Assembly: GCA_965214785.1 (NCBI GenBank)
Contig: OZ243975.1
Span: forward strand, 132,914 to 196,913
DNA: 64,000 bases
Reading direction: 5' to 3'
Origin: Arenicellales bacterium
GTDB lineage: Bacteria > Pseudomonadota > Gammaproteobacteria > Arenicellales > JAJDZL01
The first letter of the stretch is position 1, and every line of letters starts with the position of its first letter. Positions 24,221 to 48,779 of the stretch are shown here, in pieces. Below the pieces are notes generated by a model. The model searched no databases. It was given only the letters and a program-made list of their open reading frames with translations, and was not told the origin of the DNA. The translations under genes and the position numbers were made by a program.

Positions 24221-24249
24221 GTTAAACATTCAAAGCGAACAGGAACGAT

Positions 24250-25480: not shown

Positions 25481-25502
25481 CTGTAAATTCAATGAAATTT
25501 GG

Positions 25503-25694
25503 TTATATGAGCCATTGTGACAGTTGCCGTGTAGACAGCTGATTGACAGTGGGGAAATCGTCGCGAACGAGACTGATTGTTTGTTTCCATCGGTCAGCGA
25601 ACTGCTCGCTATCGGCGAACGATGCGGGAACTGTTATTACACAAATAAACGACATAATAACAATAAGATGTATAGAATACTTCCTAAATCGCAT
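25503..25694 (-). CDS. Candidate small secreted protein (63 aa)
   Basis: ATG start and a signal-peptide-like N-terminus (MRFRKYSIHLIVIMSFICVITVPASFA/DS). It has its own terminator, but no clear RBS and no recognisable family. Confidence 0.3.
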   Translation of the reverse strand: MRFRKYSIHLIVIMSFICVITVPASFADSEQFADRWKQTISLVRDDFPTVNQLSTRQLSQWLI

Positions 25695-25739
25695 GAAACT
25701 AATTGACTAACCCATACTGAATTGAATAAGAAAACTTTG

Positions 25740-27215
25740 CATCAGCTAAGGCGTACAGAAAAATGGTGTGTATGAGCGGTGGATAACAATTTAACCTGTC
25801 CAAATCAACGAGCGTGATTGGGAGCGTAGAAAAACAGATTTGAATTGGTAGTCGTTCGGAACACCATAATGGCGAGTTGTTCAAACCGCTTGCGGCGGTT
25901 CTACAGGTAAAGCCCTGAGGTAATCTCCGAGAGAAGGGATCGGAATCTTATATTGGTCCGGTATTTTTAGTGCCGGGGCTAGCAATCCTGCATGCAACGC
26001 ATTGGTCAAAAAATCGTCAATACTCTCTGCTTTTCTTTTTCGCGCAGATTCCGTTAGCAAATCAATCTCATCATATGACAAGGTATCCACAAAATCCTCT
26101 TTCTTTTTAGCCGCTGCCAAGGCCAATTTCTTATACACCCATGCTCGGCTGGAACCGGCTTTAACCCTTCCTGCATAGTAGTCGTTTTTGCGTTCAACTC
26201 CCTCGTCGAGTGCCTGTTCAAGCAAATGCCTTTCCATCCGGCCTTCGTTAGCGCGTAACACTTCACCTGCAGTCACTCCAATCCGATTGATGTGTTGTGG
26301 CCACCCCTGGGACAAGTCCGCTAAAGCATCTGCCCAGAAATCCTTTTCTTCCTCAGCTCCGATATAGTAAGCATCCAACATGCGTCGAAAGGAACCGGCT
26401 GCAACCTCCGTTTCAAGAGATTCCAGATTTACAACTCTTTTAGCGGCATATCTCGACAAGCCAAACTGGCGCAATACCTGTTCAGTATCGCTTAGACCAA
26501 AGAATGCTGCAACCAGAGGAATCTCCTTGGGTGGATCGTGCAAACAGCCCATCACGCCTTTAGTAGTACCCGCTTCCGGCGTATTTTGGGCTTCATCCAC
26601 AAAGACCACCAGATGAAACTTTTCAAGCAAAGGCGAAGCTTCGCGGAAAATGCGGGCCGACCTCATCGTCATTTCTGAAAGGCTGGCAGTCTGTGATCTG
26701 CCACTTACAGAATTTCCCGCTACGCCAACTTCCCATTCTGACAATTCTCCGTACAATTTTCCGCCCAAGTCCAGCAATTTCCTGAGATTACGGGCAATTG
26801 CATCTGGCGCTATCTTTGAAAGTCGATCGCTTTCTTTATTCGCTGCATCAATCAAGTCCATCACGACTTCGGCAGGTGATATCAGGGTGTCTGGTTTGAT
26901 AGATACAGCAACCCAGGGATCATCCGGTGTTGAATGACATCTGACAGCTTCCACGCATTCTTGCATCAGCGCAGTTTTTCCGACACCAGGTGCACCTTGG
27001 AACACCATTGTGCCACCACCTACTTGCCCTGCACGGAGGCTTTCTACCGCATTGCGAAAGATATCGTACTCAGCATCCCGGCCATGAAAAAAAGCCTCAC
27101 GACCGACTTCGGCGCGATCGGTTTGATCCCGCCACACTTCCTCTGGCAGAGGTTTTACTGGCAGTGGCTTGGGGAAAGGTCTTTGATGCATGCGGGTAAT
27201 TTTATTCCAATCAGG
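25740..27215 (-). repeat. Direct repeat copy A (ATPase gene plus ~150 bp 3' flank and ~25 bp 5' flank)
   Basis: Aligns without indels across the whole 436-codon gene to 47032..48342 at a constant offset of 21,151 bp. Weaker, indel-containing similarity continues 3' of the stop. Confidence 0.85.
25881..27191 (-). CDS. P-loop NTPase, AAA_16/AAA_22 (STAND/ORC-like) type, copy 1
   Basis: Pre-Walker pattern FFHGRDAEYDIFRNAVESL. Walker A GAPGVGKT (26972-26999). Walker B LVVFVDEAQ (~26587-26612). 436 aa with no added effector or repeat domain. Confidence 0.8.
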   Translation of the reverse strand: MHQRPFPKPLPVKPLPEEVWRDQTDRAEVGREAFFHGRDAEYDIFRNAVESLRAGQVGGGTMVFQGAPGVGKTALMQECVEAVRCHSTPDDPWVAVSIKPDTLISPAEVVMDLIDAANKESDRLSKIAPDAIARNLRKLLDLGGKLYGELSEWEVGVAGNSVSGRSQTASLSEMTMRSARIFREASPLLEKFHLVVFVDEAQNTPEAGTTKGVMGCLHDPPKEIPLVAAFFGLSDTEQVLRQFGLSRYAAKRVVNLESLETEVAAGSFRRMLDAYYIGAEEEKDFWADALADLSQGWPQHINRIGVTAGEVLRANEGRMERHLLEQALDEGVERKNDYYAGRVKAGSSRAWVYKKLALAAAKKKEDFVDTLSYDEIDLLTESARKRKAESIDDFLTNALHAGLLAPALKIPDQYKIPIPSLGDYLRALPVEPPQAV

Positions 27216-27603
27216 ATTTGACAGTCTTGTCCGGCTTTACAATCAATCCGTTTTGAAGTTTATTATGGGGACGAACTAATCGCCTTGAACGAGATCAATA
27301 TTTTAGAACAATAGCCGCTAACTTAAAATCTCACGTCCCCGGGAATCAAAAGAAAAGGCAAATTGACTGCTGTCAGCCTGATAAGGGTCACACAACAAAA
27401 CCCTTGCCAACGAGCATATTTTCAACTGCACAAGCGTCAAGGTAATACAATAAGCGCCTGAGTTTTGATGGACTAATCCTGACAGTGGTAGGAACAAGAC
27501 TTAAACAAAAGTGCTTGAAAATGCAATTCACACACAATAATATCAGTAACCGAACCGAGTTTTATTCATCGCGGCATCCGCGTTGTAAATCCAAACCGTT
27601 CTA

Positions 27604-27612
27604 CCCCCCCCC
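27604..27612 (+). repeat. Homopolymeric C9 tract in the open leader frame upstream of the 27715 gene
   Basis: Nine consecutive C residues read directly. See the finding on start-codon logic. Confidence 0.9.
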
Positions 27613-27714
27613 GCTGGATCTAACCGCCGCTTAGCACCCCCTGTCGTAAGCGCAAGTACTGCGACAGATCGCTTTCGCTTTAACCCTCACGTCTGCGGTG
27701 TAAAGACCGCATTT

Positions 27715-30225
27715 TTGTGCTCAGCCTTATCCGCAGCACTTGCAGTTTCGCTTGCAGAAGCTGATACCACACAGCAGACGATTGAACAGGCCATTGACTA
27801 TCCGGAAGGTGCTGTAGTTAGAATCACTTCTGTCGCACCCAAAGATGCGCTGTGGACGCTTGAGGGTGAAGACGCAGAAAGATTTTTGATCGAAGGTGGC
27901 GCACTTCGATTTTCCGATGATGGCTTTCGAGTCGCCCGACCCGATTTTGAAATCCCCCGTGATGCAGACGGGGACAATGTCTACCGCGTTCGCGTATCGC
28001 GCATCACCGATGATGCAGACAAAAAGCGAAGCTATGATTTCGTAATCAGGGTCACCGACCGCGATGAACCAGGTCGCATCAAGACATCCACCGTTCACCC
28101 AGTCAGCGGTGAAACTGTTCAGGTTCATCTTACAGACCCCGATGACATCGAAGGAGAGATCCGATGGCGCTGGCAGCGTTCGGCGGAACCTGACCAATGG
28201 ATTTCCATTGATGCCGTCAATTCTTCCTCCTACACCCCAAACGCAGGCGATACAGGTCACTTTATTCGCGTCATCGCTGAGTACCACGACCGTCTAGGCG
28301 GTCCCCGTACGGTAAAGGCTCTTTTGCCTGAAACCGTAATTGGCCCAAAGCTACTGTCTTTAGATGCCAAAACCGACCATGGCGGAAAAACACTTCATCC
28401 GCTGTTTGACCCTGTCATCACACACTACGGCATCGAATGTGACGAGCGCGATGTGTTGAGTGTGAACTTCACTTTACCACAAGATATCAAAGCATCAGTC
28501 AACGGCATACAGCCTCGCCCTGGGCGCAAGACAGGAGCAGCGGCAGCTGTAGAAGAAACCAGCGATACAAAGATTGTCTTATCTCAAGCTGACGGTGCGA
28601 GTACGACCTACACCATACACTGTCTGCCACAGCAGCTTGCCAAGATACGAACCAAACCTGATCCGAACAATCCGCTTGGCGTACTGCTTGGGGTAACAGC
28701 AGGGCCCTTTGCAGCGGTGATTGATGAAAACGGTGTCTCGCGCGCGCATATCAAGGCAAGCCGCGGCAATGCAGGTTTCTTTTTTCGACATTTTGGTTCA
28801 GGGCACAACATGCGCTGGGCGCATGTTGAAACATCAGCAGAAAAAAAACAGCACTGGCGAGTACTTGATCGAAACTTCAATACGTTGCGCACTGTTGCCA
28901 CCGCTTCGCCTTTGACCACGACGGGGCGTCACGACTTTCGGCTGCTTGAGGACGGTTCTTCGATGCTGATGACTTATGAACCTCAGTTTCGGGACTTCAG
29001 TTATCTTTCTTTTGGTGACCTGGACGGTGAGCCGTGGGGAAGTGCTGTAGAAACCGAAGATTCAGCTATTCAGTGGCTCGGTCCTGACGGCAAAGTGCGC
29101 TGGACCTGGAATTCCTGGGGCCGAATACCACTTGAAGACTGTTCACAGCACCGTTTTCCCCGGGACTGGGCGCATGTCAATTCAATTGAATGGACAGATC
29201 AAGGCGTACTGGCATCTTTTCGCGGCTGCTCTTCAATTTTGATGATTGACCCTAAAGCTCCATCAGGAGACGAGATCGTCTGGCGTATTGGCAGAACCAA
29301 TTTGCAGGCAGATCAGTGGAAAGAGCGTGATCTTAGTCCGCCTCCGCTTGCGATTGTCGGTGATCCGGAAGGAGAGTTCTGCGGTCAGCACGCGGCAATG
29401 CTGCTGGCGCCACCTGCAGGATTGAAGCTTTCGCGCTTACTTTTGTTTGATAACGGTGTTGCTTGTGTAACCGACCCTCATACAGGCGAGTCACTTGGAC
29501 GCCAGTCTGACCGTTACAGCAGAGTTGCAGAATACGCAATTGATGTTGCAAACGAAGAAGCGATCTTTGTACGCGACCATGCTCTTGGCAATAGCCGAGA
29601 CCGCCTTGGCTTTGCAGGCGGTCATGTAGAACCTTTATCTGACGGCAAGTGGCTTGTGAGCTGGGGCGGAGGCGGGCCTAAAAACGATGTCGAAAGCGGC
29701 GGTCTTGAGATTAATGATTTGGTGACGGTAGTTGATTCAAACAAAGGACAAGAAACCTTTTCCATCCCGGTTGGCGATGATGACAAAGCGACTGCCGGAT
29801 TTCGGGTACTGCCTGTTGCATTGGATGTGTTGATGCGCCCGCAAGCGCAATTGCATGCATTTTTTCCAGACCCGCTGCCACAATCCCACGACGGAGCAGG
29901 CGAGACGTTTTCGATTCTTGTGTCTTTTTCTCGGCCCATATCAGACTTTGGTGTAGATACCCCGTCCATTGAGATTACCGGCGGTGAACTTACCGACGTA
30001 CGACCTTTCACTTCATTCGGGCGACCTGCAAACAGTTATGAGATTTTCATTAAACCTGCTGCAAACGATCCGGTGTGCCTGTCGTTTCGGACAAAAATCA
30101 GCTGCACTGAAAAAGAAAGCATATGCAGTGCTGACGGGACTGAGCTCACCGAAGCGCCAGAACCTTTTTTGATTCCAGGCAGTGACTTATCCGACGGTCA
30201 GTCGCACACAAACAAGTGCACATGA
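27715..30225 (+). CDS. Secreted cadherin-like + arylsulfotransferase (ASST)-like beta-propeller protein
   Basis: N-terminal cadherin-like segment (DADGDNVYRVRVSRITDD...VIRVTDRDEPG). ASST-type motif DWAHVNS at 29164-29184. The TTG start leaves only a truncated signal peptide (MCSALSAALAVSLAEA). The frame is open back to 27589. Confidence 0.65.
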   Translation: MCSALSAALAVSLAEADTTQQTIEQAIDYPEGAVVRITSVAPKDALWTLEGEDAERFLIEGGALRFSDDGFRVARPDFEIPRDADGDNVYRVRVSRITDDADKKRSYDFVIRVTDRDEPGRIKTSTVHPVSGETVQVHLTDPDDIEGEIRWRWQRSAEPDQWISIDAVNSSSYTPNAGDTGHFIRVIAEYHDRLGGPRTVKALLPETVIGPKLLSLDAKTDHGGKTLHPLFDPVITHYGIECDERDVLSVNFTLPQDIKASVNGIQPRPGRKTGAAAAVEETSDTKIVLSQADGASTTYTIHCLPQQLAKIRTKPDPNNPLGVLLGVTAGPFAAVIDENGVSRAHIKASRGNAGFFFRHFGSGHNMRWAHVETSAEKKQHWRVLDRNFNTLRTVATASPLTTTGRHDFRLLEDGSSMLMTYEPQFRDFSYLSFGDLDGEPWGSAVETEDSAIQWLGPDGKVRWTWNSWGRIPLEDCSQHRFPRDWAHVNSIEWTDQGVLASFRGCSSILMIDPKAPSGDEIVWRIGRTNLQADQWKERDLSPPPLAIVGDPEGEFCGQHAAMLLAPPAGLKLSRLLLFDNGVACVTDPHTGESLGRQSDRYSRVAEYAIDVANEEAIFVRDHALGNSRDRLGFAGGHVEPLSDGKWLVSWGGGGPKNDVESGGLEINDLVTVVDSNKGQETFSIPVGDDDKATAGFRVLPVALDVLMRPQAQLHAFFPDPLPQSHDGAGETFSILVSFSRPISDFGVDTPSIEITGGELTDVRPFTSFGRPANSYEIFIKPAANDPVCLSFRTKISCTEKESICSADGTELTEAPEPFLIPGSDLSDGQSHTNKCT

Positions 30226-30292
30226 ACAAATCAACAGATCCAAAACCCTTGCGCGTTCGTCGCAATCGGTCAGATAACAAAGGAGTTTACCT

Positions 30293-33200
30293 ATGAACGG
30301 TTCAAGCAAAGATCGAACTGACAATCCGGTTATTGAAATTAGGCTCTGGTCTTGGTTTAAGCAGTGTAGTCGATTGAATCGTTGCGAGGCTGGCGCTGCA
30401 TCGCAATATGCTGGACGCTTATTTCGAAATGTGATGACCGGATTTATAGCACTGCTGGTAGCAGTCGGGCTTTCTGCCGGGGCACAGGCGCAAACGCCGA
30501 CGCTGCCCGCTGTCGCACCGACGGAAATCTACGAAGGTGAGACGCTTGAGTTCACACTGTCCGTGACAAGGAATTTCGGTCTTTTTCCTTGGACAGATGG
30601 CTACAATTATTTAGAACCTGATTCGGGAGGCACGGCAACCGAGGGAAACTCTAGTGACTGGTATCTAGCTGACAGCGGCGGAAACCGAATAGCGCAGTAT
30701 AGCCAATCGAACAGCACTCCAAGGCTAGTGACTACAGGCGACGGTACTCAGTACTACGAAATTGACTTTCGTCTGCACGCGAGAGCAGACAGCGCCACCG
30801 AGAGCGATGAAACGATCCGTTTGTATTTGCATGATGAGTATGATTCCCACGATAACGATTATCTCACAATCACCCTGAAGGACGGCACGCGCCCGGTGAT
30901 GGTCACCGACGGCGTAACCCTTTCCGCATCCGCCCTTACCCTGACCGAACTTGGCTCATCCAGCGATGTCGAGAAGACCTACACCGTAGTGCTCGACACC
31001 GATCCGGGCGCCGATGTGACCTTCACGGCGACGGTGCCGGCGGCAAACAGCTCCGAGGTCGAGATCAAGACCGGCAGCGGCGCTTTCGGCAGCAGCGCCA
31101 CGCTCACTTTCACCCATGGCAATACCGGCAACTGGAGTTCGGCGCAGACGGTGACGGTCAGGGCGCTGAACGATGCCGATGCAACCAACACCACCTCCTT
31201 CAACCTCACCCACAGCCTGACCGTGGCCAGCGGTCCCTACGCAAGCATCACACCGGACCCGGTCGCGGTGTCGGTGACCGACGCCGGCCACGGGGTCACC
31301 GTGTCCAAGGCCAGCGTTTCGCTGGCGGCGGACGGCACCGTGGACTACACGATCCAGCTCAAAAGCCAGCCCGGCGGCTCGGTGGTCATCACGCCGACCT
31401 CGAGCGCCACGGCGAGGGCCACGGTGTCGGGCGCCCTGACTTTTACGAACTCGAACTGGTCCACGCCGCAGACGGTGACCGTGACTGGCGCTGGCACCGG
31501 CTCGGCCACGATCAGCCACATGGTGACGACCGGCACCACGGACTACCCGACCAGTACGACGATCGCCTCGGTGACGGCGACGGTGAACGCGGCAGCCAAC
31601 AATACGCCGACGGTGGCCAACATGATCCCCGACCAGACGGCGACAGTGGGCACGGTGCTGAGCTACGCCTTCCCGGCCAACACCTTCAATGATGCCGACA
31701 ACGACAACCTGACCTACAGCGCAACCAAATCCGACGACACTGCCCTGCCGACCTGGCTGACCTTCACCTCGGGCACCCGCACCTTCTCGGGTACGCCGCA
31801 GGCGGCCGATGTCGGCACGCTGTCGGTCAAGGTGACGGCGAATGACGGCAACAGCGGCACCGTCAGCGACACGTTCGACATCGTCGTGTCCCACCCCGCC
31901 CGGAACCTCGATATTCAGGTGGCCGACGCCTATGAAGGCGAGAACATCGTCGTCACCCTGACCCTGAGCCGGGCGCCGGGCAATGTGGTCGCGCGCCAGC
32001 GGACCTTCAGGGTCAGCACAGACGTTCCGTCAGCTTCCAACGTCAACATCTGCATCTCATCCTATGGCTGCGAGGCCGGCAGCACGCCCGCCGCGGCCGC
32101 AGACTTCTTCACGGTCACCGGAACGGACGTCGTGTTCGGCCCCAGCGACACCGTGAAGTCCGTCTCCCTCCCGACCGTCACCGATTCCGCGAGCGAGGGG
32201 GTGGAAGTGGCGTCAATCGATATCTTGTACAGTCCCGGAACGGGCGACCTGGGCATCTTCACCCATGGCAGCACGCAGGTCACCGGGCGGAATGGGTTCA
32301 TCGCTGCTCCGAATCTTCAAGAAACCAACATAGAAGTCGGCTCATACGGCCAGATCCGGGACGGCGCCCGCCCGGTACCGATCACCATCACCGAGGCCGG
32401 AGGGACCACGGTCAGCGAGGACGGCAGCACCACCACGGACAGCTACACCGTGGTGCTGGACAGCCAGCCCAGAGCCAGTGTGACGGTGTCGGCCACCGCC
32501 GGCACGGGCGCGCAGGTGCAGGGCCCCGGCGGCACAGCGGGCGGGGCGGCAACCCTCACCTTCACCACCACGAACTGGAACCAGGCGCAGACGATCACCG
32601 TCACCGGCGTCGATGACGACATCGACAATACAGGCGATGCGCGCACCGTGACCATCGCCCACGCGGCGAGCTCCACCGATTCCACCTACACCATCGCCAA
32701 CGCGGGCGAAGTGAGCGTCACCGTCACCGACGACGACACGGCGGGTCTGGTTTTTAGCCCGGATCCCGTCTCGGTGAACGAAGGCGAAACCGGCAGCTAC
32801 ACGGTGGCGCTTGCCAGCGAGCCGTCGGGGAACGTGACGGTCACCATCACCGGGCAGGGCGGCAGCACCGACCTGACACTGGACACCGACAGCGTCATGG
32901 CGGGCGATCAGGACACGCTCACCTTCACGACCTCGAACTGGAGCGCGGCGCAGACCGTAGAGCTCACCGCGGCAGAGGACAACGACAGCAACAACGATTC
33001 GATCACCCTCGCCCATGTGCCCACGGGCGGCAGCTATGGCAACGCGCAGAACAAGAACCTCGCGGTCACCATCACGGACGACGAGGGGCTGACGCCGGTG
33101 ATCTCGATGTCGCTTCCGAGCGGCGAGAGCGAGATGTACACGGATGACGACGAGCTGATCCGCCCGGAAAGCGAGGGCGGTACCGGCGTGCTGTTCACCG

Positions 33201-38752: not shown

Positions 38753-39387
38753 GGGAAAGTAACAGACAACAAAAGCGGTTATGTGGATGAGGCGCTGTGC
38801 AGGCATGGCGCTTCGTCCGCACTGTTTTGGCCGATGACGCAGGAATCGGGAAGTAAAACAGTACCGTCTCACCTCGCATTTTGTTTCAATCCAATTGAGT
38901 CAGTTGAATGCCTGCGGCTTGCGGTTTTTCAAATCTGAAAGCGTCAAATGTGTCAGCAGCTCGGTGCGGTTGAGATTGAAAATGAATGCAACGCAAATTG
39001 CCCAATCTCCAAATCGATAATCAAAAGTAAAAAAACTCATAAAATAAGGGGGTAAAACAACCACGAGGCGCACGATGAATGCATATTACGTTGATGACAG
39101 ACTACGTTTTGAACGCAGTTTTGTTTATATGACTTATCTGTTGTGCACTTTTGAAAATTGAATTGCATTTTGCAAACCGATCTAACCCGGCATCATTATC
39201 ATGTCGTCGCATCCAATCTCGCTGTTGTGTTGAATCGCCATCGAATGGCACAGCGCGTCTTGCGCACAATCGAATCCACGAAAAACCGTTGCGGTCGCTG
39301 AGTTTTGATTAGCTGCAGCTCGCTAAGATGCAGATTGTTCAATAAGAAAAACCGAATTTAACCTTGACAAAAAAAGGAACCCCTTTC

Positions 39388-42300
39388 ATGTCTATTCTTC
39401 ATTCACAGCAAACACAAACTCTCATCAACCGTATCGTAAGCGATGGCGGCGAATATTCTGCCGGCGACGCTGGACAGTTCCCGCAATTCGTTCGACACTA
39501 TTATTACGGCGTGCCTTTCGATGCTTTAAATGAAAGAGACCTTTTCGACTTGCGCGGTGCAGCACTGGCACATTTCGAACTGGGAAGAGTACGCGAACGC
39601 AACGCGTTCAATCTGCGAATATATACCCCCGATGTTGAACACGATGGATGGCGCTCAAAACATTCGGTACTGGAGGTTGTTACTCAGGACCGTCCATTTT
39701 TGGTCGATTCCGTCTCAATGGTTTTGAACGCCTTGGGTTTAAAAATTCACTTGAGTGTTCACCCCGTGTTTGTGGTTCGTCGCGATGCCAACGGCCTACT
39801 TGACAAAGTTGCCTCACCGCTGGATGCGGATTTTCTCGACGGCGTGCACGAATCATATTTGCATTTTCAGTTTGATACACCTGCAACTGAAAAAGACATC
39901 GAAGTGCTGCGATCTCGATTGCAAGAAACTTTCGAGTTTGTTGAGTCAGCAGTCGAAGACTGGCCAAATATGCGAAACCGCGTCAATGAGGCTGCGGCAA
40001 GGCTTAGAACACGAAATGGACAGCAAGAAGACGTAAACGCGGTGGAACTGGCGGAATTTCTAGAATGGTTAAGCAATGGAAATTTCGCATTGCTCGGGTA
40101 CTGCGAGTTTAGAACATCGAAAAACAAAGGAATGTCACTAAACGAAAAATCTGTTCTCGGCGTGTTAAGGCAGATGGACAAAATCGATGATGTGATGCCC
40201 GTTGATGAATTTCGTACTGATAAAAACGAACAGGAACTGCTTATTACCAAGGCGAATATTCATGCGCCTGTCCACCGCGCATCGTTCATGGATTTGATTC
40301 GAATACCAAAATACTCAAAAACCGGTAGTTGCACCGGTGTCAGTGTTGTGGCAGGACTATTTAGTTCTACGGCTTACAATCGAAGTGCGAGCAATATACC
40401 TGTGCTGCGGCTTAAGACCAAGCATGTATTGCAAAAAAGCCGTTTTTCAGAAACGACGCACAGCATCCGGGCTTTGACGAACATCATCGACAACTACCCC
40501 CGTGACCTGCTGTTCAGAGTGACAGGTGAGGAATTGTTTGAAGACGTTGCAGGAATTTTGGAACTTCAGGAGCGTCATCGAATCAGGGTCTTCTTACGCC
40601 GCGAGAAATTCGGTCGTTACTACTCCGCAATTGTTTATATCCCCCAGGAATTGTTCAATCGAACACTGCGGATTCGAATCGAAGAGATTCTGATGGAATC
40701 GCTCGGCGGCATTTCGTCAGAGTTTTTCGCTACATTTTCCGAATCGGTCCTCGCCCGTATAACTTACACGATTCATGTTGAAAAGAACTCCAATGCGCTT
40801 CGACAATTACCTGAAATCCAGCAATTGGTTGAAGACGCTGCAATCACCTGGGAAGACCAGCTGCATAAAGCAACAGTAGAACGCTATGGCGATGAAAAAG
40901 GATCGCAGTTGTTCAAACAATTTGAAAATGCGTTTAGCAGCGGCTACCAGGAGAAATATTCTCCCTGGATGGTAGCTGCTGAACTGGAACGCTTTTCAGC
41001 ACTAAGTGCAGACAATCGCCTAATCGTCTCATTTTTTCGACCACTTGGGAATTCAGATGATGAATCGGTTCGTCTTAAGTTGTATTGTTATGAAGACCAG
41101 ATCTCACCTTCTGATGCTTTGCCATTCATGGAGAATTTTGGGCTGCGGGTGCTTGAAGAGACTCCATACAAAATTACACCAGTCTCTGGTGAGGAACTAT
41201 GGGTGCATGATTTTGTTGTCATCCACGCGAACAAAACACAACTTGATCCGAACTCCCAGCGGGACAACTTCGAAAACGCTTTCGGTCATATCTGGCATGG
41301 GGATGCAGACAACGATAAATTCAACAAACTGATACTGATCGCCAATCTAAGCTGGCGACAGGTAGTGGTCTTGCGGGCATATCGTCGATATCTCAAGCAA
41401 ATTGGCAACCCGTTCAGTGAAGTGTATATCACCTCAACACTAATGAATCATGTTGAAATGACAATCAACCTGATTCAGTATTTTGAGCTGAAATTCAACC
41501 CGGCATCGAAAGCGACAAAACGGCAGCTAAATAAGCTTGTTGATGAAATGGAGTCTTATCTGGACGAGATTAGCAGTTTGGATGAGGATCTCATTTTGCG
41601 CAGTTACTTAAACGCAATTGACTCAACGATTCGCACCAATTATTACCGAACAGATGACAGCGGTGACTGTCTGCCGTATCTTTCTTTCAAGTTCGATGCA
41701 TCGAAAATTATGAAAATGCCGGACCCTCGTCCGATGTTCGAGATTTTCGTGTATTCAACACGAACCGAAGCGGTTCATCTTCGAGGTGGCAAAGTCGCTA
41801 GAGGCGGATTGCGCTGGTCAGACCGAAGAGAAGATTTTCGAACCGAAGTGCTCGGGCTGGTGAAAGCGCAAATGGTAAAAAATGCAGTCATTGTTCCGGT
41901 TGGTTCAAAAGGAGGCTTCGTTATCAAAAAATCGCCACCTAAAGGATCAACCCTGTTGGATGAAGCCATCTTCTGTTACAAGACGTTTATTCGAGGCATG
42001 CTTGACATTACCGATAACATCGTCGGAGACAAGCTAGTCAGTCCGCCAGATGTCGTTCGTTATGATGAGGACGACCCTTACCTTGTCGTTGCCGCTGACA
42101 AGGGGACAGCAACGTTTTCTGATATTGCAAACAGCATATCGGAAGAATACGGATTTTGGCTGGGAGACGCTTTTGCTTCGGGCGGATCGGTGGGTTACGA
42201 TCACAAGGGAATGGGAATTACCGCCCGCGGGGCGTGGGAGTCCGTTAAACGTCACTTCCGGGAACTTGGAACTGATGTCCAGAAAAATGAATTTACCGTG

Positions 42301-44193
42301 ATTGGTGTTGGAGACATGAGCGGTGATGTTTTTGGTAACGGCATGTTGCTTTCAAAGCATATTCAGCTCGTCGGCGCTTTCAATCACATTGAAATATTTC
42401 TTGATCCAAATCCAAATGCAGCAAAAAGCTGGCTGGAGCGCAAACGTCTGTTCGATTCGCCTGGATTGACATGGAAAGACTATGACAAGAAGTTGATTTC
42501 TGCCGGTGGAGGCGTCTATGACAGAAGTGCGAAAGCCATTGAAATTTCAGACGAAGTTCAAAAGCGTCTGAATATTTCAGCATCGTCCTTGACTCCTAAT
42601 GAGTTATTGAATGCCATGCTGAAAGCCCCAGTGGATTTACTGTGGAATGGTGGAATCGGAACATACGTCAAAGCTTCAACAGAATCCCATGCTGACGCAG
42701 AGAACCGCGCAAACGATACGATTCGGGTTGATGGAAATGAACTCGGATGCAAAGTCGTCGGTGAGGGAGGCAATCTTGGCATGACACAATTGGGACGAGT
42801 TGAGTTTTGTCTAAGTGGCGGACGGTGTTATACCGATTTTATCGATAACTCCGGAGGTGTTGACTGTTCAGATCACGAGGTAAACATCAAGATACTGCTC
42901 AACCAGATTGTCAGTAACGGAGAACTCACCGTTAAGCAGCGAAAAAAATTGCTAAGCGATATGACCGAAGAAGTATCGGAACTGGTACTGTTTGACAATT
43001 ACCAGCAAAGTCAGGCACTCAGTTTGGTCAATGTTGAGTCGCGCCAGCTCCTGCGTGAACATATTCGATTTATTAGAAACCTTGAATCTAGAGGCGAGCT
43101 GAATCGGGAACTCGAATTCTTGCCTGACAGAGACGAATTAAAAAGACGTGAAGCAGAGGGAATCGGGTTAAAGTTTCCCGAGTTATCTGTCCTGCTTGCC
43201 TATTCAAAGATGACTTTGTATCAGGATTTGCTGAAATCGGATGTGCCAGAAGACCAGTTTTTAGTTAGAGACCTAAACGACTATTTTCCCAATCGGCTTG
43301 CAAAGCGATTTGGTGAAGAAATTCTCAAACATCGGCTAAAAAGAGAAATTATTGCTACATATGCGACCAATAACCTGATCAATCGGGTAGGTCCTACTTT
43401 CATACTGCGTATGAATCAGTTTACCGGCGCAGATAATGCAGACATCACGCGTGCATATTGCGCAGCGAGGGATATTTTCGATTTAAACGGAATTTGGAGC
43501 GAAATTGAAGCATTGGATAATTTGGTTCCAGCACAAACACAAATGACCATGCTTTCGTATGCCAGCGGCTTGCTCGAAAGGGCAACTTTGTGGCTGCTTC
43601 GACATCGAGCACTGCCTTTGAATATCGAACAGACGGTAAATTACTACAAAGAAGATATTGCTGAGTTGGCAGACTGTTTTCCTGACATATTAGACAGGCA
43701 ATACACCACAAATTTGGCAAAGCACGTACGCGAGCTGGTAAAAAATGATGTTCCGGAGATGATTGCCAGACGAATTGCGAAATTCATTCCGCTTTCGACT
43801 GCGTTCGATATGATCGAAATCGCCAAGTCTACTAAAAAACCCGTACCGTTTGTTGCCAAGGCATATTTCGAAGTTGGGTCTAAACTGGAATTGATGTGGA
43901 TTCGTCAGAAAGTGGCCACACTTCCTGTCGACAATCACTGGCACAATCTTGCAAAATCCAGGTTAAGCGATGACATTCATTCGCATCAATACGCGATTAC
44001 AAGTGATGTTGTTCGAGATGGCAAGTCATCAGATCCATCCAAGGTGGTTTCAGAATGGATGCAAAACAACAACAATGGATGCCGCATGCTGGCCAACATC
44101 ATTTCTGATATGAAATCGCTCAGCAAGATTGATTTTGCAACATTGTCGGTTGCAATCAGCGAGGTTTACCTTCTAAGCAGGGTGTCAGATTAG
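39388..44193 (+). CDS. gdhB: NAD-specific glutamate dehydrogenase, large (~180 kDa) GdhB type
   Basis: ~1,600 aa. Core RGGLRWSDRREDFRTEVLGLVKAQMVKNAVIVPVGSKGGF. ATG at 39388 with RBS AAAGGA. The track ORF opens at TTG 39364. Confidence 0.9.
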   Translation: MSILHSQQTQTLINRIVSDGGEYSAGDAGQFPQFVRHYYYGVPFDALNERDLFDLRGAALAHFELGRVRERNAFNLRIYTPDVEHDGWRSKHSVLEVVTQDRPFLVDSVSMVLNALGLKIHLSVHPVFVVRRDANGLLDKVASPLDADFLDGVHESYLHFQFDTPATEKDIEVLRSRLQETFEFVESAVEDWPNMRNRVNEAAARLRTRNGQQEDVNAVELAEFLEWLSNGNFALLGYCEFRTSKNKGMSLNEKSVLGVLRQMDKIDDVMPVDEFRTDKNEQELLITKANIHAPVHRASFMDLIRIPKYSKTGSCTGVSVVAGLFSSTAYNRSASNIPVLRLKTKHVLQKSRFSETTHSIRALTNIIDNYPRDLLFRVTGEELFEDVAGILELQERHRIRVFLRREKFGRYYSAIVYIPQELFNRTLRIRIEEILMESLGGISSEFFATFSESVLARITYTIHVEKNSNALRQLPEIQQLVEDAAITWEDQLHKATVERYGDEKGSQLFKQFENAFSSGYQEKYSPWMVAAELERFSALSADNRLIVSFFRPLGNSDDESVRLKLYCYEDQISPSDALPFMENFGLRVLEETPYKITPVSGEELWVHDFVVIHANKTQLDPNSQRDNFENAFGHIWHGDADNDKFNKLILIANLSWRQVVVLRAYRRYLKQIGNPFSEVYITSTLMNHVEMTINLIQYFELKFNPASKATKRQLNKLVDEMESYLDEISSLDEDLILRSYLNAIDSTIRTNYYRTDDSGDCLPYLSFKFDASKIMKMPDPRPMFEIFVYSTRTEAVHLRGGKVARGGLRWSDRREDFRTEVLGLVKAQMVKNAVIVPVGSKGGFVIKKSPPKGSTLLDEAIFCYKTFIRGMLDITDNIVGDKLVSPPDVVRYDEDDPYLVVAADKGTATFSDIANSISEEYGFWLGDAFASGGSVGYDHKGMGITARGAWESVKRHFRELGTDVQKNEFTVIGVGDMSGDVFGNGMLLSKHIQLVGAFNHIEIFLDPNPNAAKSWLERKRLFDSPGLTWKDYDKKLISAGGGVYDRSAKAIEISDEVQKRLNISASSLTPNELLNAMLKAPVDLLWNGGIGTYVKASTESHADAENRANDTIRVDGNELGCKVVGEGGNLGMTQLGRVEFCLSGGRCYTDFIDNSGGVDCSDHEVNIKILLNQIVSNGELTVKQRKKLLSDMTEEVSELVLFDNYQQSQALSLVNVESRQLLREHIRFIRNLESRGELNRELEFLPDRDELKRREAEGIGLKFPELSVLLAYSKMTLYQDLLKSDVPEDQFLVRDLNDYFPNRLAKRFGEEILKHRLKREIIATYATNNLINRVGPTFILRMNQFTGADNADITRAYCAARDIFDLNGIWSEIEALDNLVPAQTQMTMLSYASGLLERATLWLLRHRALPLNIEQTVNYYKEDIAELADCFPDILDRQYTTNLAKHVRELVKNDVPEMIARRIAKFIPLSTAFDMIEIAKSTKKPVPFVAKAYFEVGSKLELMWIRQKVATLPVDNHWHNLAKSRLSDDIHSHQYAITSDVVRDGKSSDPSKVVSEWMQNNNNGCRMLANIISDMKSLSKIDFATLSVAISEVYLLSRVSD

Positions 44194-44281
44194 TAACTGC
44201 AAATCAGTTCAGTGCAAATTGCAGGGCGGTGAAAATTCGACCCTATGTGCCGGTTTATTCGGTTCGCAAATCTACTCAACA

Positions 44282-45367
44282 CTAATCAAACACAATCACT
44301 GATCGAACCGACGACCCGCGTTTCAATTGTTCGAAACCGTCGTTTACCTGTTCCAAACTGATTCGTCTGGAAATCATCTCGTCAAGTTTGAGTTGTCCGC
44401 GTAAATAAAATTCGACGTAGCGCGGCATGTCTACTCGAAACCGATTGGACCCCATATTTGAGCCCTGAAGGCACTTGTCGTTAATCAGGTCGGCCGCTTC
44501 GATTTCAATCATCTCGCCTTGCGGAACCATACCGATGACTGTAGCCACGCCTGAAGGGCGCAGCATTCGGAAAGCTTGCTCGCAGGTTTGTTTTCTGCCA
44601 AGGGCTTCGAATGAATATTCGACGCCTCCCAAAGTCAATTCCTTGACAGCTTCGACAGGGTCACAATGATGAGCGTTGATCATGTCTGTTGCTCCAAACT
44701 TTTTGGCTGTCTCGAGTTTTTCGTCGCTGATATCAACTGCGATAATTCGTCCGGCTCCGGCGATTGCTGCCCCGTTGACAGCAGACAGCCCGACACCTCC
44801 GCATCCTATCACTGCGACCGTCGAACCGACTTCGATATCTGCGGTATTGGTTACTGCACCGAAACCGGTAGTCACGGCGCAGCCAATCAATGCGGCCCTG
44901 TCAAGTGGCATCTCAGGGGTGATTTTGACAACAGCGTGTTCATGTACGAGCATTTTTTCTGCAAACGAGGACAAGTCGTAGAATTGGTGAATGGTCTTAT
45001 TGCCTTGAGACAGACGCGGTTTTGATTTGGGATCACGGGATGTTTCCGGATTGTGGCAGCTGAAAGGCCTTCCAGTTATGCAGAACTCACAATGGCCGCA
45101 AAAAACCGAGAGACAGGTGATGACGTGGTCGCCCGGTTTGACGTAATTGACATCACTGCCAACCAGCTCAACCACACCAGATGCTTCGTGCCCCAGAATT
45201 GAAGGCGCTTGTGTGTAATACAAACCTTCGATATAGTGCAGATCTGAATGACAAATTCCTACTGCAGCGGTCCGGATAAGAACCTCGCGGGCCTGCGGTT
45301 TTGCGACATCTACTTCTTCAATCGTCAAAGACCTGTGGGGGCCATGAAAAATTGCGGCTTTCATCAA
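44282..45367 (-). CDS. Zinc-dependent alcohol dehydrogenase family oxidoreductase
   Basis: GICHSD zinc motif, structural-Zn Cys cluster (CGHCEFCITG), Rossmann VIGCGGVGLS. Confidence 0.85.
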   Translation of the reverse strand: MMKAAIFHGPHRSLTIEEVDVAKPQAREVLIRTAAVGICHSDLHYIEGLYYTQAPSILGHEASGVVELVGSDVNYVKPGDHVITCLSVFCGHCEFCITGRPFSCHNPETSRDPKSKPRLSQGNKTIHQFYDLSSFAEKMLVHEHAVVKITPEMPLDRAALIGCAVTTGFGAVTNTADIEVGSTVAVIGCGGVGLSAVNGAAIAGAGRIIAVDISDEKLETAKKFGATDMINAHHCDPVEAVKELTLGGVEYSFEALGRKQTCEQAFRMLRPSGVATVIGMVPQGEMIEIEAADLINDKCLQGSNMGSNRFRVDMPRYVEFYLRGQLKLDEMISRRISLEQVNDGFEQLKRGSSVRSVIVFD

Positions 45368-45448
45368 ACTCCTTTAACCCGAACAACCATCCCTTTGCAT
45401 TGATCACAAAGACGGTGCGACATCACTGTGTAGCGGTATCTGTCTCGA

Positions 45449-45907
45449 CTAATTGGATAATACTTCCGGCCAGTTTGCGTCCGCTTTTCTAATATTGCCT
45501 GGAATGTCCTTGCTCCACTTTTTCCGCACGCTGCGGCTATAGTTCAGGTATAGCGTGTTGTCAACGATTGACCAGGCATCTGGGTCTGTACTGGCTGTGT
45601 AGTTATTAGACACTGCCCATGCGCAATAGCCGCCGTACTTGGGTGCCCACTTTTCTGGATCAGTCAGAAATATGTCACGATTATCAGCGCTGGCAAACCG
45701 CCAGGATGCACCGTTGTACTGTGCTGTGTAATTGTTATTGCCTTTTACAGGTTTTTCTTCAGTGTGATAGGCAACAGTGTCGTATCCTCGAATTGCAAAT
45801 TCACCCCGACCGGTAAATACCGCAGGCTGGTCGGCGTTAGCGACTGCAGAAAGCAAGGTTAAGGCGACTGCGGTACTTGCATACCTTAAAAAGCGTTTTG
45901 TCAGCAT
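45449..45907 (-). CDS. Periplasmic YHS-domain protein
   Basis: Signal peptide. YHS-type segment IRGYDTVAYHTE...YNGASWRFASADNRDIF...YGGYCAWAV. Confidence 0.7.
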   Translation of the reverse strand: MLTKRFLRYASTAVALTLLSAVANADQPAVFTGRGEFAIRGYDTVAYHTEEKPVKGNNNYTAQYNGASWRFASADNRDIFLTDPEKWAPKYGGYCAWAVSNNYTASTDPDAWSIVDNTLYLNYSRSVRKKWSKDIPGNIRKADANWPEVLSN

Positions 45908-46297
45908 TGCATTTTCTCCGAATAAATTAATGGCAATAGATCTTTTGCATTATGACAATGTTTATCTGCGAAAGGTGTCAATTTTGCCAACATAAAATAC
46001 ATTGAGATCTCGAATCGACGAATTTGAGCGATCCAGATCTGCAGCCTTTTGCATCAAAATTGTGCAAAGACTGTGATTCAGCTGGAAGTGCAGGTCGATG
46101 AGTATGGCGATCCGGCTTTTAATGCAACTAAAAATCTCGATTCGACAATCAGCAATCGGAACTGTTTGCAGCGAAAAAACGGTGTGATCAAAAAAATTCG
46201 AAATTCGAGTTGTATTTCTCACTGGAATTGCTGTGTTCAGCGAAGTAACCCTGTTCTCATCGCTTAATGATCTCAATACATTGAAGTCAGACCAGCA

Positions 46298-46768
46298 TCA
46301 AGAGGGAATGGCTTGCAGTACCTTTTCTGGATGGGTGAATACGTTTGGTACGCGCTTCCAATGTTTGATTATTTCAGCGTTTTTGCCAATCAGTACAGTT
46401 GATCGAATGACGCCGTCGATGAGTTTGCCATACATCATTTTTTTCCCATAAGCACCATAAGCACTCATCACCTGACGGTCTGGGTCTGACAGCAGTATGA
46501 ATGGCAGCTGGTGTTTGGATATGAACTTCTGATGAGATTGTCGTGAGTCTGCTGAGATGCCGATGATAACCGTGTCGGCTTGCTCGAATTCATTGAACAA
46601 ATCTCTAAACCCACAAGCCTCCTTCGTGCATCCCGGCGTGGCGTCTTTTGGATAGAAAAATACGACAACATTTTTACCGGAAAATTCTTCAAGTGTTCTC
46701 ACTTTGCCATATGAATCGCAAAGTGAGAAGGACGGTGGTTTCTGGCCTACGTTAATCGTTTTACTCAT
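46298..46768 (-). CDS. bcp: Peroxiredoxin Bcp (thiol peroxidase)
   Basis: FYPKDATPGCTKEAC active-site motif. 156 aa. Confidence 0.9.
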   Translation of the reverse strand: MSKTINVGQKPPSFSLCDSYGKVRTLEEFSGKNVVVFFYPKDATPGCTKEACGFRDLFNEFEQADTVIIGISADSRQSHQKFISKHQLPFILLSDPDRQVMSAYGAYGKKMMYGKLIDGVIRSTVLIGKNAEIIKHWKRVPNVFTHPEKVLQAIPS

Positions 46769-46890
46769 TGGTTTCCGCGAAGGTTGAAACGAATAGTGGC
46801 AATTTTATTTTGTATACAGCTATGCCTGAGAAATTTCTGTGCTGAAGGAGAATATTCGACTATCCCGTGACGAGTTGAATAATGAAACTT

Positions 46891-48366
46891 TGCCTCACCT
46901 ATGGATACACGGAAAATTGTGTGTATGCGCGGTAGACAGACAAGTAAAGCCGTCGAAATTCATGTGCCTAATCGGAGCAAAGTACAAACAGATTAGAATT
47001 GGCAATCTCAAACACCAAAGGTTCCAGTTGCTCAAACCGCTTGCGGCGGTTCTACGGGTAACGCCCGAAGGTAGTCGCCAAGAGATGGGATTGGGAACCG
47101 ATAATGAAAGGGAAGCTCACTCAACGGAGCCAGAAGACCTGCGTGCAATGCATTGGTTAAAAACTCACCAATGGTTTGATCTGTTGTTTTTCGTGAAGAT
47201 TCCGTCAGTCGGATCACTTCTTCATATGACAGGATGTCAGCTAACTCACCTTGTTTGTCAGCAGCTTTCAAAGCCAACTGCTTGTAAACCCACGGCGGAT
47301 TGCTGCCGGCTGCAAGCCGTCCTGCATAGTATTTGTTTTTCCGTTCAACACCATTTTTCAGCGCCTGTTCAAGCAAATGCCTTTCCAGCTGGCTTTCGTT
47401 AGTTTGTATCACCCGACCTGCAGCTACACCTACCCTATTGATGTGTTGTGGCCACCCTTGGGACAAGTCCGCTAAAGCATCTGCCCAGAAATCCTTTTCT
47501 TCCTCGGCTCCGGTATAGTAAGCATCAAACATGCGCCGAAAGGAACCGGTTGCATCCGCCGTTTCAAGAGGCTGCAGATTTACTAACCGCTCATCGGCAT
47601 ATCTTGACAAACCACACTGGCGCAATACCTGCTCAGTGTCGCTCAGACCAAAGAACGCTGCAACCAGAGGAATCTCCTTGGGCGGATCTTGTAAACAGCC
47701 CATCACGCCTTTAGTAGTACCCGCTTCCGGCGTATTTTGGGCTTCATCCACAAAGACCACCAGATGAAACTTTTCAAGCAAAGGCGAAGCTTCGCGGAAA
47801 ATGCGGGCCGACCTCACCGTCATTTCTGAAAGGCTGACAGTCTGTGATCTGCCACTTACAGAATTTCCCGCTACGCCAACTTCCCATTCTGACAATTCTC
47901 CGTACAATTTTCCGCCCAAGTCCAGTAATTTCTTAAAACTACGGGCAATTGCATCTGGCGCTATCTTTGAAAGTCGCTCGCTTTCTTTATTCGCTGCATC
48001 AATCAAGTCCATCACGACTTCGGCAGGTGACTCCAGGGTGTCTGGTTTGATAGATACAGCAACCCAGGGATCATCCGGTGTTGAATGACATCTGACAGCT
48101 TCCATACATTCTTGCATCAGCGCAGTTTTTCCGATACCGGGCGCACCTTGGAACACCATTGTGCCACCACCTACTTGCCCTGCACGGAGGCTTTCTACCG
48201 CATTGCGAAAGATATCGTACTCAGCATCTCGGCCATGAAAAAACGCCTCGCGACCGACTTCGGCGCGATCGGTTCGCTTCAGCCACACTTCCTCTGGCAG
48301 AGGTTTTACTGGCAATGGCTTGGGAAAAGGTCTTTGATGCATACAGGTTATTCTAGCCCAATTAGG
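46891..48366 (-). repeat. Direct repeat copy B (paralogous ATPase gene plus flanks)
   Basis: Same orientation as copy A, at a 21,151-bp offset. Confidence 0.85.
47032..48342 (-). CDS. P-loop NTPase, AAA_16/AAA_22 (STAND/ORC-like) type, copy 2
   Basis: Start placed at the ATG conserved with copy 1 (MHQRPFPKP, 48342). The upstream 31 codons of the track ORF have no counterpart at copy 1. Walker A GAPGIGKT, Walker B LVVFVDEAQ. Confidence 0.8.
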   Translation of the reverse strand: MHQRPFPKPLPVKPLPEEVWLKRTDRAEVGREAFFHGRDAEYDIFRNAVESLRAGQVGGGTMVFQGAPGIGKTALMQECMEAVRCHSTPDDPWVAVSIKPDTLESPAEVVMDLIDAANKESERLSKIAPDAIARSFKKLLDLGGKLYGELSEWEVGVAGNSVSGRSQTVSLSEMTVRSARIFREASPLLEKFHLVVFVDEAQNTPEAGTTKGVMGCLQDPPKEIPLVAAFFGLSDTEQVLRQCGLSRYADERLVNLQPLETADATGSFRRMFDAYYTGAEEEKDFWADALADLSQGWPQHINRVGVAAGRVIQTNESQLERHLLEQALKNGVERKNKYYAGRLAAGSNPPWVYKQLALKAADKQGELADILSYEEVIRLTESSRKTTDQTIGEFLTNALHAGLLAPLSELPFHYRFPIPSLGDYLRALPVEPPQAV

Positions 48367-48779
48367 TCCGGCATTCTTTCTTCGGATTTTGGTGGTCGGT
48401 CTGATTATTGTTGATTGGTACCCTTTTTGCATCAAAACCGGGTCGCAGTGGCGGGATCAAGATAACGCTTGCATTGAAACCATCGACTCACGCTTACTCT
48501 TGATAAACCTTTCAATTTTGGCACGTTGCTTGTCGGTTGACGGCAAACTGAACCCCCGACCTTTGTCCACCATTCCTCTCAACCTGTGGTCTGGCTGAAA
48601 ATATACTATTGAAGTAATTCACATACATAGGCGTTGTCGTAACTGGTGTAATCAGACATCCTTGGCAGGCTCGTGAAAATTCGGTTTAAGGTTCACAAAA
48701 TTGTCGCTTTGTGGTGTTGAGCGATTATCGTGTGAACAAAATCATTCGGCATCAGCTTTCAGTTTGATATTTCTTACAT

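Follow-up and report, generated by a model that had tools for sequence, protein, structure and literature searches.

Here we analysed a 64,000-nucleotide stretch of contig OZ243975.1 (positions 132,914 to 196,913), from the assembly GCA_965214785.1 of an Arenicellales bacterium, which we refer to in full length as the window. This window carries two same-strand copies of a 436-codon ATPase gene, hereafter copies A and B, on either side of a 21-kb interval that includes the gene of a giant adhesin. Taken together, our results make it very likely that the pair represents two dispersed members of a multicopy, horizontally spreading, and gene-converting family of solitary ATPases. This account is evolutionary and structural, and does not extend to a biochemical role.

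Two ATPase paralogs diverged to unequal degrees along their length

The two genes and their parts were delineated as follows, with coordinates given in the window, and nucleotides (nt) of the coding sequence (CDS) counted from the start codon.

25881..27191, minus strand: ATPase paralog A, 436 aa (open reading frame (ORF) list; Pfam AAA_16, E 2e-10; AlphaFold2 (AF2) model)
47032..48342, minus strand: ATPase paralog B, 436 aa (ORF list; identical to database protein P0274)
26292..27191, minus strand: copy A CDS nt 1–900, probable gene-conversion zone (94% identical to B; synonymous divergence (dS) 0.136)
47443..48342, minus strand: copy B CDS nt 1–900, probable gene-conversion zone (differences between orthologs clustered here)
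25881..26291, minus strand: copy A 3′ module, CDS nt 901–1311 (C-terminal type shared at 96–98% with the paralogs P0002, P0004, and P0006)
47032..47442, minus strand: copy B 3′ module, CDS nt 901–1311 (other C-terminal type; dS to A 1.13)

A first-pass annotation of this DNA had described two 436-codon genes on the minus strand at an exact distance of 21,151 bp, and both the ORF list and the alignment bear this out. The two CDS align without gaps at that constant offset, and are 86.8% identical at the nucleotide and 84% at the amino acid level. The lack of any indel, which had been claimed for the repeat, holds for the CDS but not for the downstream tail, in which the A/B alignment includes one 3-nt and one 1-nt indel. 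Differences are unevenly distributed along the gene: 53 of 900 sites differ across CDS nt 1–900 (94% identity, with exact runs of 124, 88, 86, 71, and 53 nt), versus 120 of 411 sites across CDS nt 901–1311 (71% identity). The earlier estimate of roughly 800 bp of near-identical sequence was about right in length, but the tract is 94–96% identical rather than identical. The weaker similarity noted beyond the start and stop codons was likewise recovered: it ends ~27 nt 5′ of the ATG, and reaches ~150–180 nt past the stop, with the 3′ tails (25705–25848 and 46858–47002) being 74% identical over 147 nt. Finally, both copies were found again on independent metagenome contigs, each with its own distinct flanks; the pair is therefore not an assembly duplication, a possibility which had been raised initially and which these contigs contradict.

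Gene conversion and module exchange among paralogs

We then compared the two parts of the gene in terms of selection and age. Between A and B, dS is 0.136 for nt 1–900 and 1.129 for nt 901–1308, i.e., an 8-fold difference, while omega is 0.29 and 0.21, respectively, consistent with purifying selection in both. Since dS is unequal and omega similar, the two parts differ in sequence age and not in the strength of selection.

Two sister haplotypes co-occurring in sample ERZ25070917 (18x and 34x) provided an independent view of the same tract. These haplotypes are 98.6–98.8% identical to the window over 16–21 kb, and their B orthologs show 51 and 54 differences to window B. With a single exception, these differences fall within nt 93–837, and only 0–1 are found across the 3′ 411 nt. 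For the sister ortholog B2, for instance, differences amount to 50/900 in the 5′ CDS, 1/411 in the 3′ CDS, and 6/416 in the flanks, and a similar contrast was observed for copy A and its sister ortholog (56/900 in the 5′ CDS, 0/104 upstream, and 6/312 downstream). Hence, for strains with a background divergence of ~1.3%, orthologs differ by 5.6% in the tract and 0.2% in the 3′ part. At the 19 amino acid positions that differ, the sister B orthologs match the paralog P0273 at 17 and P0015 at 16, while window B matches A at 12. A single putative conversion tract of ~750 nt, acquired since the strains split, explains the differences between B orthologs. The A ortholog of the 18x strain (L082 9671–10981; L and P numbers denote our loci and proteins) is interrupted at codon 93 by an in-frame stop (W93*), with two fragments of 92 and 326 aa being called, so that it is either a pseudogene or the product of a read error.

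These data also bear on the alternative that the identity gradient arose simply because, in two old paralogs, the ATPase domain was under stronger purifying selection than the C-terminus. The ATPase core is indeed the most conserved part of the family, but a dS of 0.136 against 1.129 at similar omega, along with orthologs whose divergence in the tract exceeds the background, leave this explanation with almost no probability.

At the protein level, paralogs of this family are mosaics of four modules. The C-terminal module of A is 96–98% identical to those of P0002, P0004, and P0006, whereas its central module is 97% identical to that of P0002 and 95% to that of B, and matches P0006 poorly. For the C-terminal module of B (residues 331–420), the nearest relatives outside its own ortholog cluster are P0013 (80%) and P0019 (77%), both on other contigs, and the same C-terminal type is also found in the same-genome paralog P0273. 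Lower dS in the tract, orthologs more divergent inside than outside it, and mosaic paralogs are thus found together here, as is typical of gene-converting paralogs. These comparisons clearly point to ectopic gene conversion among paralogs as the source of the identity of the 5′ two-thirds, and indicate with similar clarity that the 3′ third and the tail retain an old divergence between distinct C-terminal types. Resident copies would exchange sequence by ectopic, non-reciprocal conversion in the ATPase-coding part, which would evolve in concert while the diversity of C-terminal modules is maintained.

A multicopy family of solitary genes

The source contig (2,960,598 bp) includes at least seven copies of this gene: P0001 (=A), P0274 (=B), P0002, P0004, P0006, P0015, and P0273, with protein identities to A of 92% for P0002, 81% for P0004, 78% for P0006, and 70% for P0015. 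A scan of one genome per species yielded more than 421 relatives, and an exhaustive profile search identified 945 clusters at 50% identity (E < 1e-10), nearly all 400–500 aa long. Ten members scanned against Pfam matched only the generic AAA_16 or AAA_22 models, and none of the family clusters looked up carried a source name. No relative was detected in IMG/VR contigs, PLSDB plasmids, or GenBank phages (INPHARED).

Host labels and genomic neighbours were analysed for the best 80 of the >421 relatives. The corresponding metagenome-assembled genomes (MAGs) were labelled as Arenicellales, Candidatus Poriferihabitaceae, Pseudohongiella, Pseudomonadales, or Gammaproteobacteria, along with one Alphaproteobacterium, and the highest copy numbers per MAG were at least 11, 9, 9, and 7. 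The names of several of these MAGs outside the Poriferihabitaceae presumably denote a sponge origin. The Poriferihabitaceae MAGs of the series were obtained from a sponge metagenome (PMC12859430). Overall, the family appears to occur mostly in sponge-associated MAGs.

Tandem arrays of 2–4 copies were observed at five loci (L028, L046, L042, L013, and L083). When all ORFs were clustered across 82 loci (the 80 relatives and the two window copies), no recurrent neighbour family emerged: the genes next to the copies have diverse metabolic and housekeeping functions, defence or mobile-element genes are not in excess, and only 2 of 138 neighbours encode a DDE transposase. Similarly, DNA similarity between paralogs of the same genome is limited to the CDS and a few tens of bases. 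Copies are found between unrelated housekeeping genes. Small same-strand upstream ORFs, considered as candidate partner genes, show no mutual homology and look non-coding. Disrupted copies are common, with split or truncated ORFs at L035, L041, L069, L079, L080, and L084, some of which could be due to long-read sequencing errors. The overall pattern would be one of birth-and-death turnover, with horizontal transfer, module shuffling, and pseudogenes.

Two further arrangements were observed among these loci. On contig OZ243928.1 (1.51–1.55 Mb; L036, L038, and L078), three ATPase copies lie within ~30 kb in a paralog-rich hotspot, where they alternate with repeated genes that belong to another family, likewise solitary and multicopy (two members of which were scanned with Pfam and apparently belong to PF09820, AAA-ATPase_like), and this hotspot also holds nearly identical multi-kb repeats. 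In a different genus (L001), an ATPase copy is located between YHS-like and LplA-like genes in inverted orientation.

Movement between genomes

An example of mobility was found at locus L084. In this relative, the ABC-transporter and gcvH genes are 73% identical to those of the window with saturated dS, while its ATPase copy matches A at 88% across 1494 nt, of which 166 nt are non-coding sequence upstream of the gene, and has a dS to A of 0.275. This copy heads an 8.3-kb insertion (L084 3097–11670) between an ABC permease gene and tusA, which also carries DDE transposase, AbiEi_1, and Rpn-like genes, and the corresponding site in the window (9373–9657) is empty. Such a difference in divergence between neighbouring genes provides strong evidence for horizontal movement of the ATPase gene between symbiont lineages. 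Going by MAG labels, exchange also appears to have taken place between bacterial classes, as the alphaproteobacterial copy is 71% identical in amino acid sequence to a gammaproteobacterial one.

Boundaries of the unit

Outside of the gene itself, conserved sequence was detected in a short leader and a 3′ tail.

27192..27218, minus strand: leader of A, ~27 nt, CCTGATTGGAATAAAATTACCCGC-ATG (conserved; -10-like hexamer; no Shine-Dalgarno)
48343..48369, minus strand: leader of B, CCTAATTGGGCTAGAATAACCTGT-ATG (conserved with the leader of A)
25705..25848, minus strand: 3′ tail of the copy A unit (blocks ATACACAC, GAGGCAAAG, and GGGTTAGTCAA common to copy B and the hrcA/grpE paralog)
46858..47002, minus strand: 3′ tail of the copy B unit (same conserved blocks)

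Paralog P0273 (locus L088) is located between hrcA and grpE, and shares with A and B only a ~40-nt leader and the tail blocks. In all three, the leader reads TTGGAATAAAAT, then 8 nt, then the ATG. In A, B, and L088 (7960–8000), the ATG is preceded at a distance of 8 nt by a -10-like hexamer (TAAAAT or TAGAAT), with no Shine-Dalgarno sequence, and a similar arrangement is seen in L001 and L007; the ATPase mRNA may thus be leaderless. Promoter and terminator scans near the copies were unremarkable. The tail (~110–150 nt; L088 9370–9480) with its blocks is common to these three dispersed paralogs of the same species and not to more distant species, and synonymous sites of the adjoining CDS have diverged more than the tail. 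No RNA structure was apparent in the tail (folding z-scores of +0.35 and +0.55, and only 2 compensatory pairs), and an Rfam scan of the window returned no match. Overall, a unit would comprise one gene, a leader of ~30–40 nt, and, in the source species, a 3′ tail of ~110–180 nt.

Two candidate features of these boundaries were rejected. A small ORF in the tail, overlapping the stop codon (61 aa in A, 46 aa in B), was dropped because a 1-nt indel between A and B breaks its frame, and no conserved downstream ORF exists next to the ATPase genes. The best candidate for a terminal inverted repeat, an 11/13 match between leader and tail, was observed in A and is absent in B and in the hrcA/grpE copy, with a chance expectation that we estimate at about 0.5 for such a match. 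A repeat scan and inspection of unit ends revealed no terminal inverted repeats or target duplications at the copies.

These boundaries bear directly on an earlier suggestion, namely that a larger block was duplicated and its interior later replaced, leaving the ATPase genes as remnants. The shared orientation and the gapless CDS alignment would fit such a history, as would the presence of LplA-B_cat paralogs (22135–23247 and 48780–49781) on the outer sides of both copies. These LplA paralogs are not in parallel positions, however, with one located 2.6 kb beyond the 3′ end of A and the other divergent from the 5′ end of B, and therefore provide no support for a segmental duplication. In addition, A/B similarity is limited to the gene with ~30 nt upstream (~27 nt by alignment) and ~180 nt downstream, the same gene-sized unit is found at least five more times in this genome, including between hrcA and grpE, for a total of at least seven dispersed copies, and the 3′ modules derive from different old lineages (dS 1.13). 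A segmental duplication with a replaced interior thus appears highly improbable, and dispersed members of a repeated family remain our preferred explanation for the pair.

The interval between the copies in related strains

The region between the two copies was delineated as follows.

27715..30225, plus strand: ASST-like gene (Pfam; window 28094–30214 missing in the 18x sister strain)
30293..38752, plus strand: He_PIG/Calx-beta repeat adhesin, 2819 aa (Pfam; core 64–68% G+C; repeat region strain-variable)
39364..44193, plus strand: NAD-glutamate dehydrogenase gdhB (Pfam)
39364..46768, mixed strands: conserved core block with gdhB (plus), zinc-dependent alcohol dehydrogenase (adh, minus), YHS (minus), an unassigned 104-aa ORF (minus), and bcp/AhpC-TSA (minus) (collinear in the sister strains and L086)
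25331..39031, no strand: strain-variable ~13.6-kb segment with copy A, the ASST-like gene, and the adhesin (absent from relative L086)

Pfam confirmed the gene content initially listed for this interval. The reported lack of an integrase, transposase, or tRNA gene at its ends also stood, with no tRNA gene in the entire window and no such domain in the flanking ORFs tested.

Among related strains, the 18x sister contig carries both copies in the same gene order, 18,602 bp apart, and differs from the window by the loss of 28094–30214 (the body of the ASST-like gene) and by changed adhesin repeats. The first ~380 bp of the ASST-like gene are kept in this strain, and the ATPase repeats play no part in this deletion or insertion. 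From the polyketide synthase gene through copy B to the adhesin, the 34x haplotype is collinear with the window, and its contig probably ends within copy A. Copy B and its flanks are retained in both related haplotypes recovered (L081 and L085). In a more distant relative (L086, ~77–80% nucleotide identity), the second radical-SAM gene is followed by 570 bp and then by gdhB, adh, YHS, and bcp, and the region from window position 25331 to ~39030 therefore has no counterpart there. The comparison of the locus among relatives, which had been proposed as a check, thus revealed that part of the interval is variable, but also that the variable segment ends before gdhB and not at copy B: copy A is at one edge, and the opposite edge falls upstream of gdhB, at ~8 kb from copy B. 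This is not the layout expected if the two copies were functional ends of an adhesin island. Instead, copy A would belong to a ~13.6-kb strain-variable segment, while copy B would adjoin a conserved core block. None of these strain comparisons revealed an A/B exchange that removed or duplicated the interval. The 21,151-bp spacing and the enclosure of adhesin and core genes are best read as incidental, judging from the genomes compared.

The first-pass annotation had favoured a different interpretation, in which the direct repeats, here ~900 bp long, would support RecA-dependent unequal exchange, with the 21-kb interval deleted or amplified within populations. Such an exchange between A and B is physically plausible: the 900-nt direct tract is 94% identical with exact runs of up to 124 nt (then 88, 86, 71, and 53 nt), the paralogs do exchange sequence, as shown above, and part of the interval is strain-variable. 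The idea of recombining repeats is upheld to the extent that 5′ dS is 8-fold lower and tracts are strain-specific, but no hybrid gene, deletion, or amplification was seen. In particular, no hybrid A/B protein was found among the homologs, the 18x contig retains both copies and the 34x contig retains B and its flanks, the 13.6-kb variable segment stops upstream of gdhB, and the ASST-like deletion and adhesin repeat changes occurred without the ATPase repeats. A deletion would also take out gdhB, adh, and bcp, which are collinear even in a ~78%-identical relative. Deletion or amplification of the interval through these repeats is hence unlikely.

Alternatively, the pair could represent the ends of a composite-transposon-like or integrative island, as the direct repeats enclose an adhesin of atypical G+C. 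This is very hard to reconcile with the remaining observations and has little probability: no transposase, integrase, tRNA, terminal inverted repeat, or target duplication was found, the ATPase has no match to a transposition family beyond a P-loop-only match, half of the interval consists of conserved core genes whose order is the same in relatives, and the ‘empty’ arrangement of L086 joins the radical-SAM gene to gdhB and not to the outside of B. Here, the apparent ‘island bracketed by repeats’ needs no special mechanism and is best read as the by-product of a repeated gene family, which calls for caution against over-reading direct repeats in symbiont genomes. Because this ATPase family is repeated, short-read assemblies also break at these genes.

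Other features of the window

The adhesin itself displays unusual composition and variability. Its 31000–35000 section is 64–68% G+C in a 47% G+C genome, its internal repeats are diverged with spacings of ~360, ~1120–1260, and ~1440–1460 nt, and, in strains with 98.6% identity in other regions, its repeat part either reaches only 76% identity or is missing, with the adhesin of the 34x strain called at only 1443 aa.

On the outer side of copy A, the region ~9657–25347 encodes TusA, a GCV_H-like (lipoate-binding) protein, CCG/Fer4 proteins, a sulfur-transport protein, an LplA-like ligase, and two radical-SAM proteins. This region appears to be an sHdr/LbpA-type sulfur-oxidation cluster with dedicated lipoate-assembly genes, and copy A comes directly after it. 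Beyond copy B, a 2486-aa polyketide synthase (50999–58462, minus strand; KS-AT-DH-MT-ER-KR-ACP) is conserved in the 34x sister strain, and presumably resembles the ‘sup’-type polyketide synthases typical of sponge symbionts.

Predicted structure and possible roles

Both proteins pass the gathering cutoff of Pfam AAA_16 (PF13191; 41.9 bits for A and 40.5 bits for B over residues 36–208, cutoff 32.6), along with a weak NACHT match below the Pfam cutoff. The AF2 model (mean pLDDT 84, pTM 0.82) predicts an AAA_16 ATPase with a helical insertion (residues ~100–190), a lid, and a winged-helix-like C-terminus, and thereby displays the three-domain Orc1/Cdc6-type fold (AAA+ base, lid, and C-terminal winged helix). 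Accordingly, Foldseek matches included ORC1/Cdc6, Pyrococcus PABY2304, RdrA, RuvB, and the plant NLR ZAR1, with template modelling (TM) scores of 0.4–0.5; for ORC1/Cdc6, E-values ranged from 5e-9 to 2e-7 over 405–457 aligned columns, with TM-scores of only 0.40–0.49. ORC1 and Cdc6 were also the only matches in a sequence search of the PDB, while a viral structure library returned generic AAA+ matches only. At the level of sequence models, TIGR02928 (Orc1/Cdc6) scored 17.4 and 18.6 bits against a cutoff of 181.3, over the N-terminal ~85 residues only, and the Pfam Cdc6_C model did not match.

An alignment of 26 sequences revealed a set of invariant motifs. These include an N-terminal FFxGRDxEY, a Walker A motif GAPGxGK[ST] at residues 66–73, a Walker B motif hhhhDE at residues 195–200, S246, R247, and R252, G296-W297-P298 in the predicted lid, and L399-H400-x-G402 in the last long helix of the C-terminal domain. 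Judged by where they fall in the predicted domains, GWP and LHxG may be counterparts of the STAND GxP and MHD motifs, which they resemble. Ahead of these motifs, both proteins have a proline-rich N-terminus, FPKPxPxxPLP, at residues 5–16 (window 27144–27179 and 48295–48330), in which F6, P7, and P14 never vary and K8, P9, P11, and L15 hardly do. Across 116 family members, variability is highest in residues 101–180, within the helical insertion of ~90 residues, and in the C-terminal residues 321–400. In ORC/Cdc6 proteins, the equivalent elements contact DNA. No Pfam model matched the isolated insertion or the isolated C-terminal 140 residues, and Pfam detected no sensor repeats (TPR/WD40/LRR) or effector domain, the 436-aa protein ending after the winged helix. 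The predicted architecture suggests an ATP-dependent oligomeric switch, in which the helical insertion and the winged-helix region would provide paralog-specific surfaces.

Searches against functional databases were largely negative. An NCBIfam search gave nothing above noise, no PADLOC-DB v2 defence model was significant (the best being mad8 at E 0.005–0.011 and TRIP13 at E 0.02), and the PHROGs match (phrog_296, E 9e-4) covered only 37 P-loop residues. Literature searches returned no description of this ATPase family.

The turnover pattern of the family seems less suited to a housekeeping role than to a selfish gene or to a sensor NTPase of the conflict or defence type. Families with such behaviour are often conflict systems. 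A conflict context, either defence or selfish, is thus our best inference and the most likely one, resting on the evolutionary pattern. When specific roles are roughly apportioned, other DNA-binding or regulatory functions receive the largest share, closely followed by a defence or sensor function and then by a selfish mobile gene, each of these amounting to less than an even chance. A bolder and more doubtful proposal is that the unit is a transposase-less, gene-sized element of a new kind that spreads inside and across the genomes of apparently sponge-associated symbionts, landing in intergenic sites of core operons and shuffling modules, and encoding an immune sensor or a self-propagating ATPase. 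If so, the family would represent either minimal STAND/ORC-like immune sensors with a built-in gene-conversion repertoire or an ATPase that promotes its own propagation, and a conflict system of this type would provide a compact, experimentally tractable ORC/STAND-like module from apparently sponge-associated microbiomes.

Several points weigh against these readings. As to function, it is deduced from fold and evolutionary pattern: the Foldseek TM-scores are modest, GWP and LHxG were equated with GxP and MHD by position in the predicted domains, no usable clue came from PADLOC, PHROGs, NCBIfam, plasmid, phage, or IMG/VR searches, and no defence-island context was seen around family copies. As to evolution, the copy converted in the ~750-nt tract could be either window B or the sister-strain B, and conversion donors were identified at the protein level only. 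The apparent link to sponges comes from one paper, one family name, and the naming of MAGs. Finally, the L086 contig ends right after bcp; a short-read contig would break there at a repeated gene, but the break is no proof of B.

Comparison with known systems

Rhs elements of Escherichia coli are multicopy, dispersed, and horizontally acquired large genes, direct copies of which give RecA-dependent rearrangements. The present family resembles them in having a conserved major part followed by a divergent C-terminal ‘tip’ and downstream sequence. However, Rhs genes encode YD-repeat toxins that carry a toxin domain at the C-terminus and come with immunity genes, whereas the genes described here encode a 436-aa ATPase, have no conserved downstream ORF, and were not observed to rearrange between copies.

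In terms of fold, the closest likeness is to the Orc1/Cdc6 proteins that initiate replication in archaea and eukaryotes, which provided the best structural matches (8s0e_A, 7jk6_A, 1w5t, 2qby, and 1fnn) and share a length of ~400 aa, the combination of ATPase, lid, and winged helix, a helical insertion, and an FxGRxxE motif before the P-loop. Unlike these proteins, the family described here is bacterial, horizontally mobile, and present in many copies per genome. No long origin-like repeats were found near the copies, in a search that was not aimed at short iterons. Similarly, STAND proteins (NB-ARC/NACHT, Avs/NLR-like, and MalT) share the predicted order of nucleotide-binding, helical, and winged-helix domains, with ZAR1 giving the highest query TM-score (0.49), and the expansion and diversification of paralogs is typical of immune receptors, but the present proteins are without sensor repeats or an effector domain and have no PADLOC match. 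The likeness to RADAR is at the level of fold only (target TM-score 0.23), as RdrA is ~900 aa long and encoded beside the RdrB deaminase, while no deaminase neighbour was found here. Likewise, the transposition ATPases IstB, TnsC/TniB, and MuB differ from this family, which has no family-level match to them and no regular transposase neighbour.

Other solitary ATPase families offer a parallel in genomic behaviour. PABY2304 (2qen; PF01637) is the second-best structural match (target TM-score 0.57), and PF01637, PF09820, and AAA_14-DUF4143 genes are also stand-alone and found in many copies per genome, with PF09820 and DUF4143 genes co-occurring near copies of the present family. The latter nevertheless belongs to none of these families at the sequence level and has a different C-terminal domain. 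Finally, the patchiness of the conversion tracts, the low dS where conversion occurred, and the mosaic paralogs recall tufA/tufB, pilE/pilS, and the vlsE cassettes. Here, however, there is no expression site with silent cassettes, and all copies are seemingly complete and under purifying selection, bar occasional pseudogenes.

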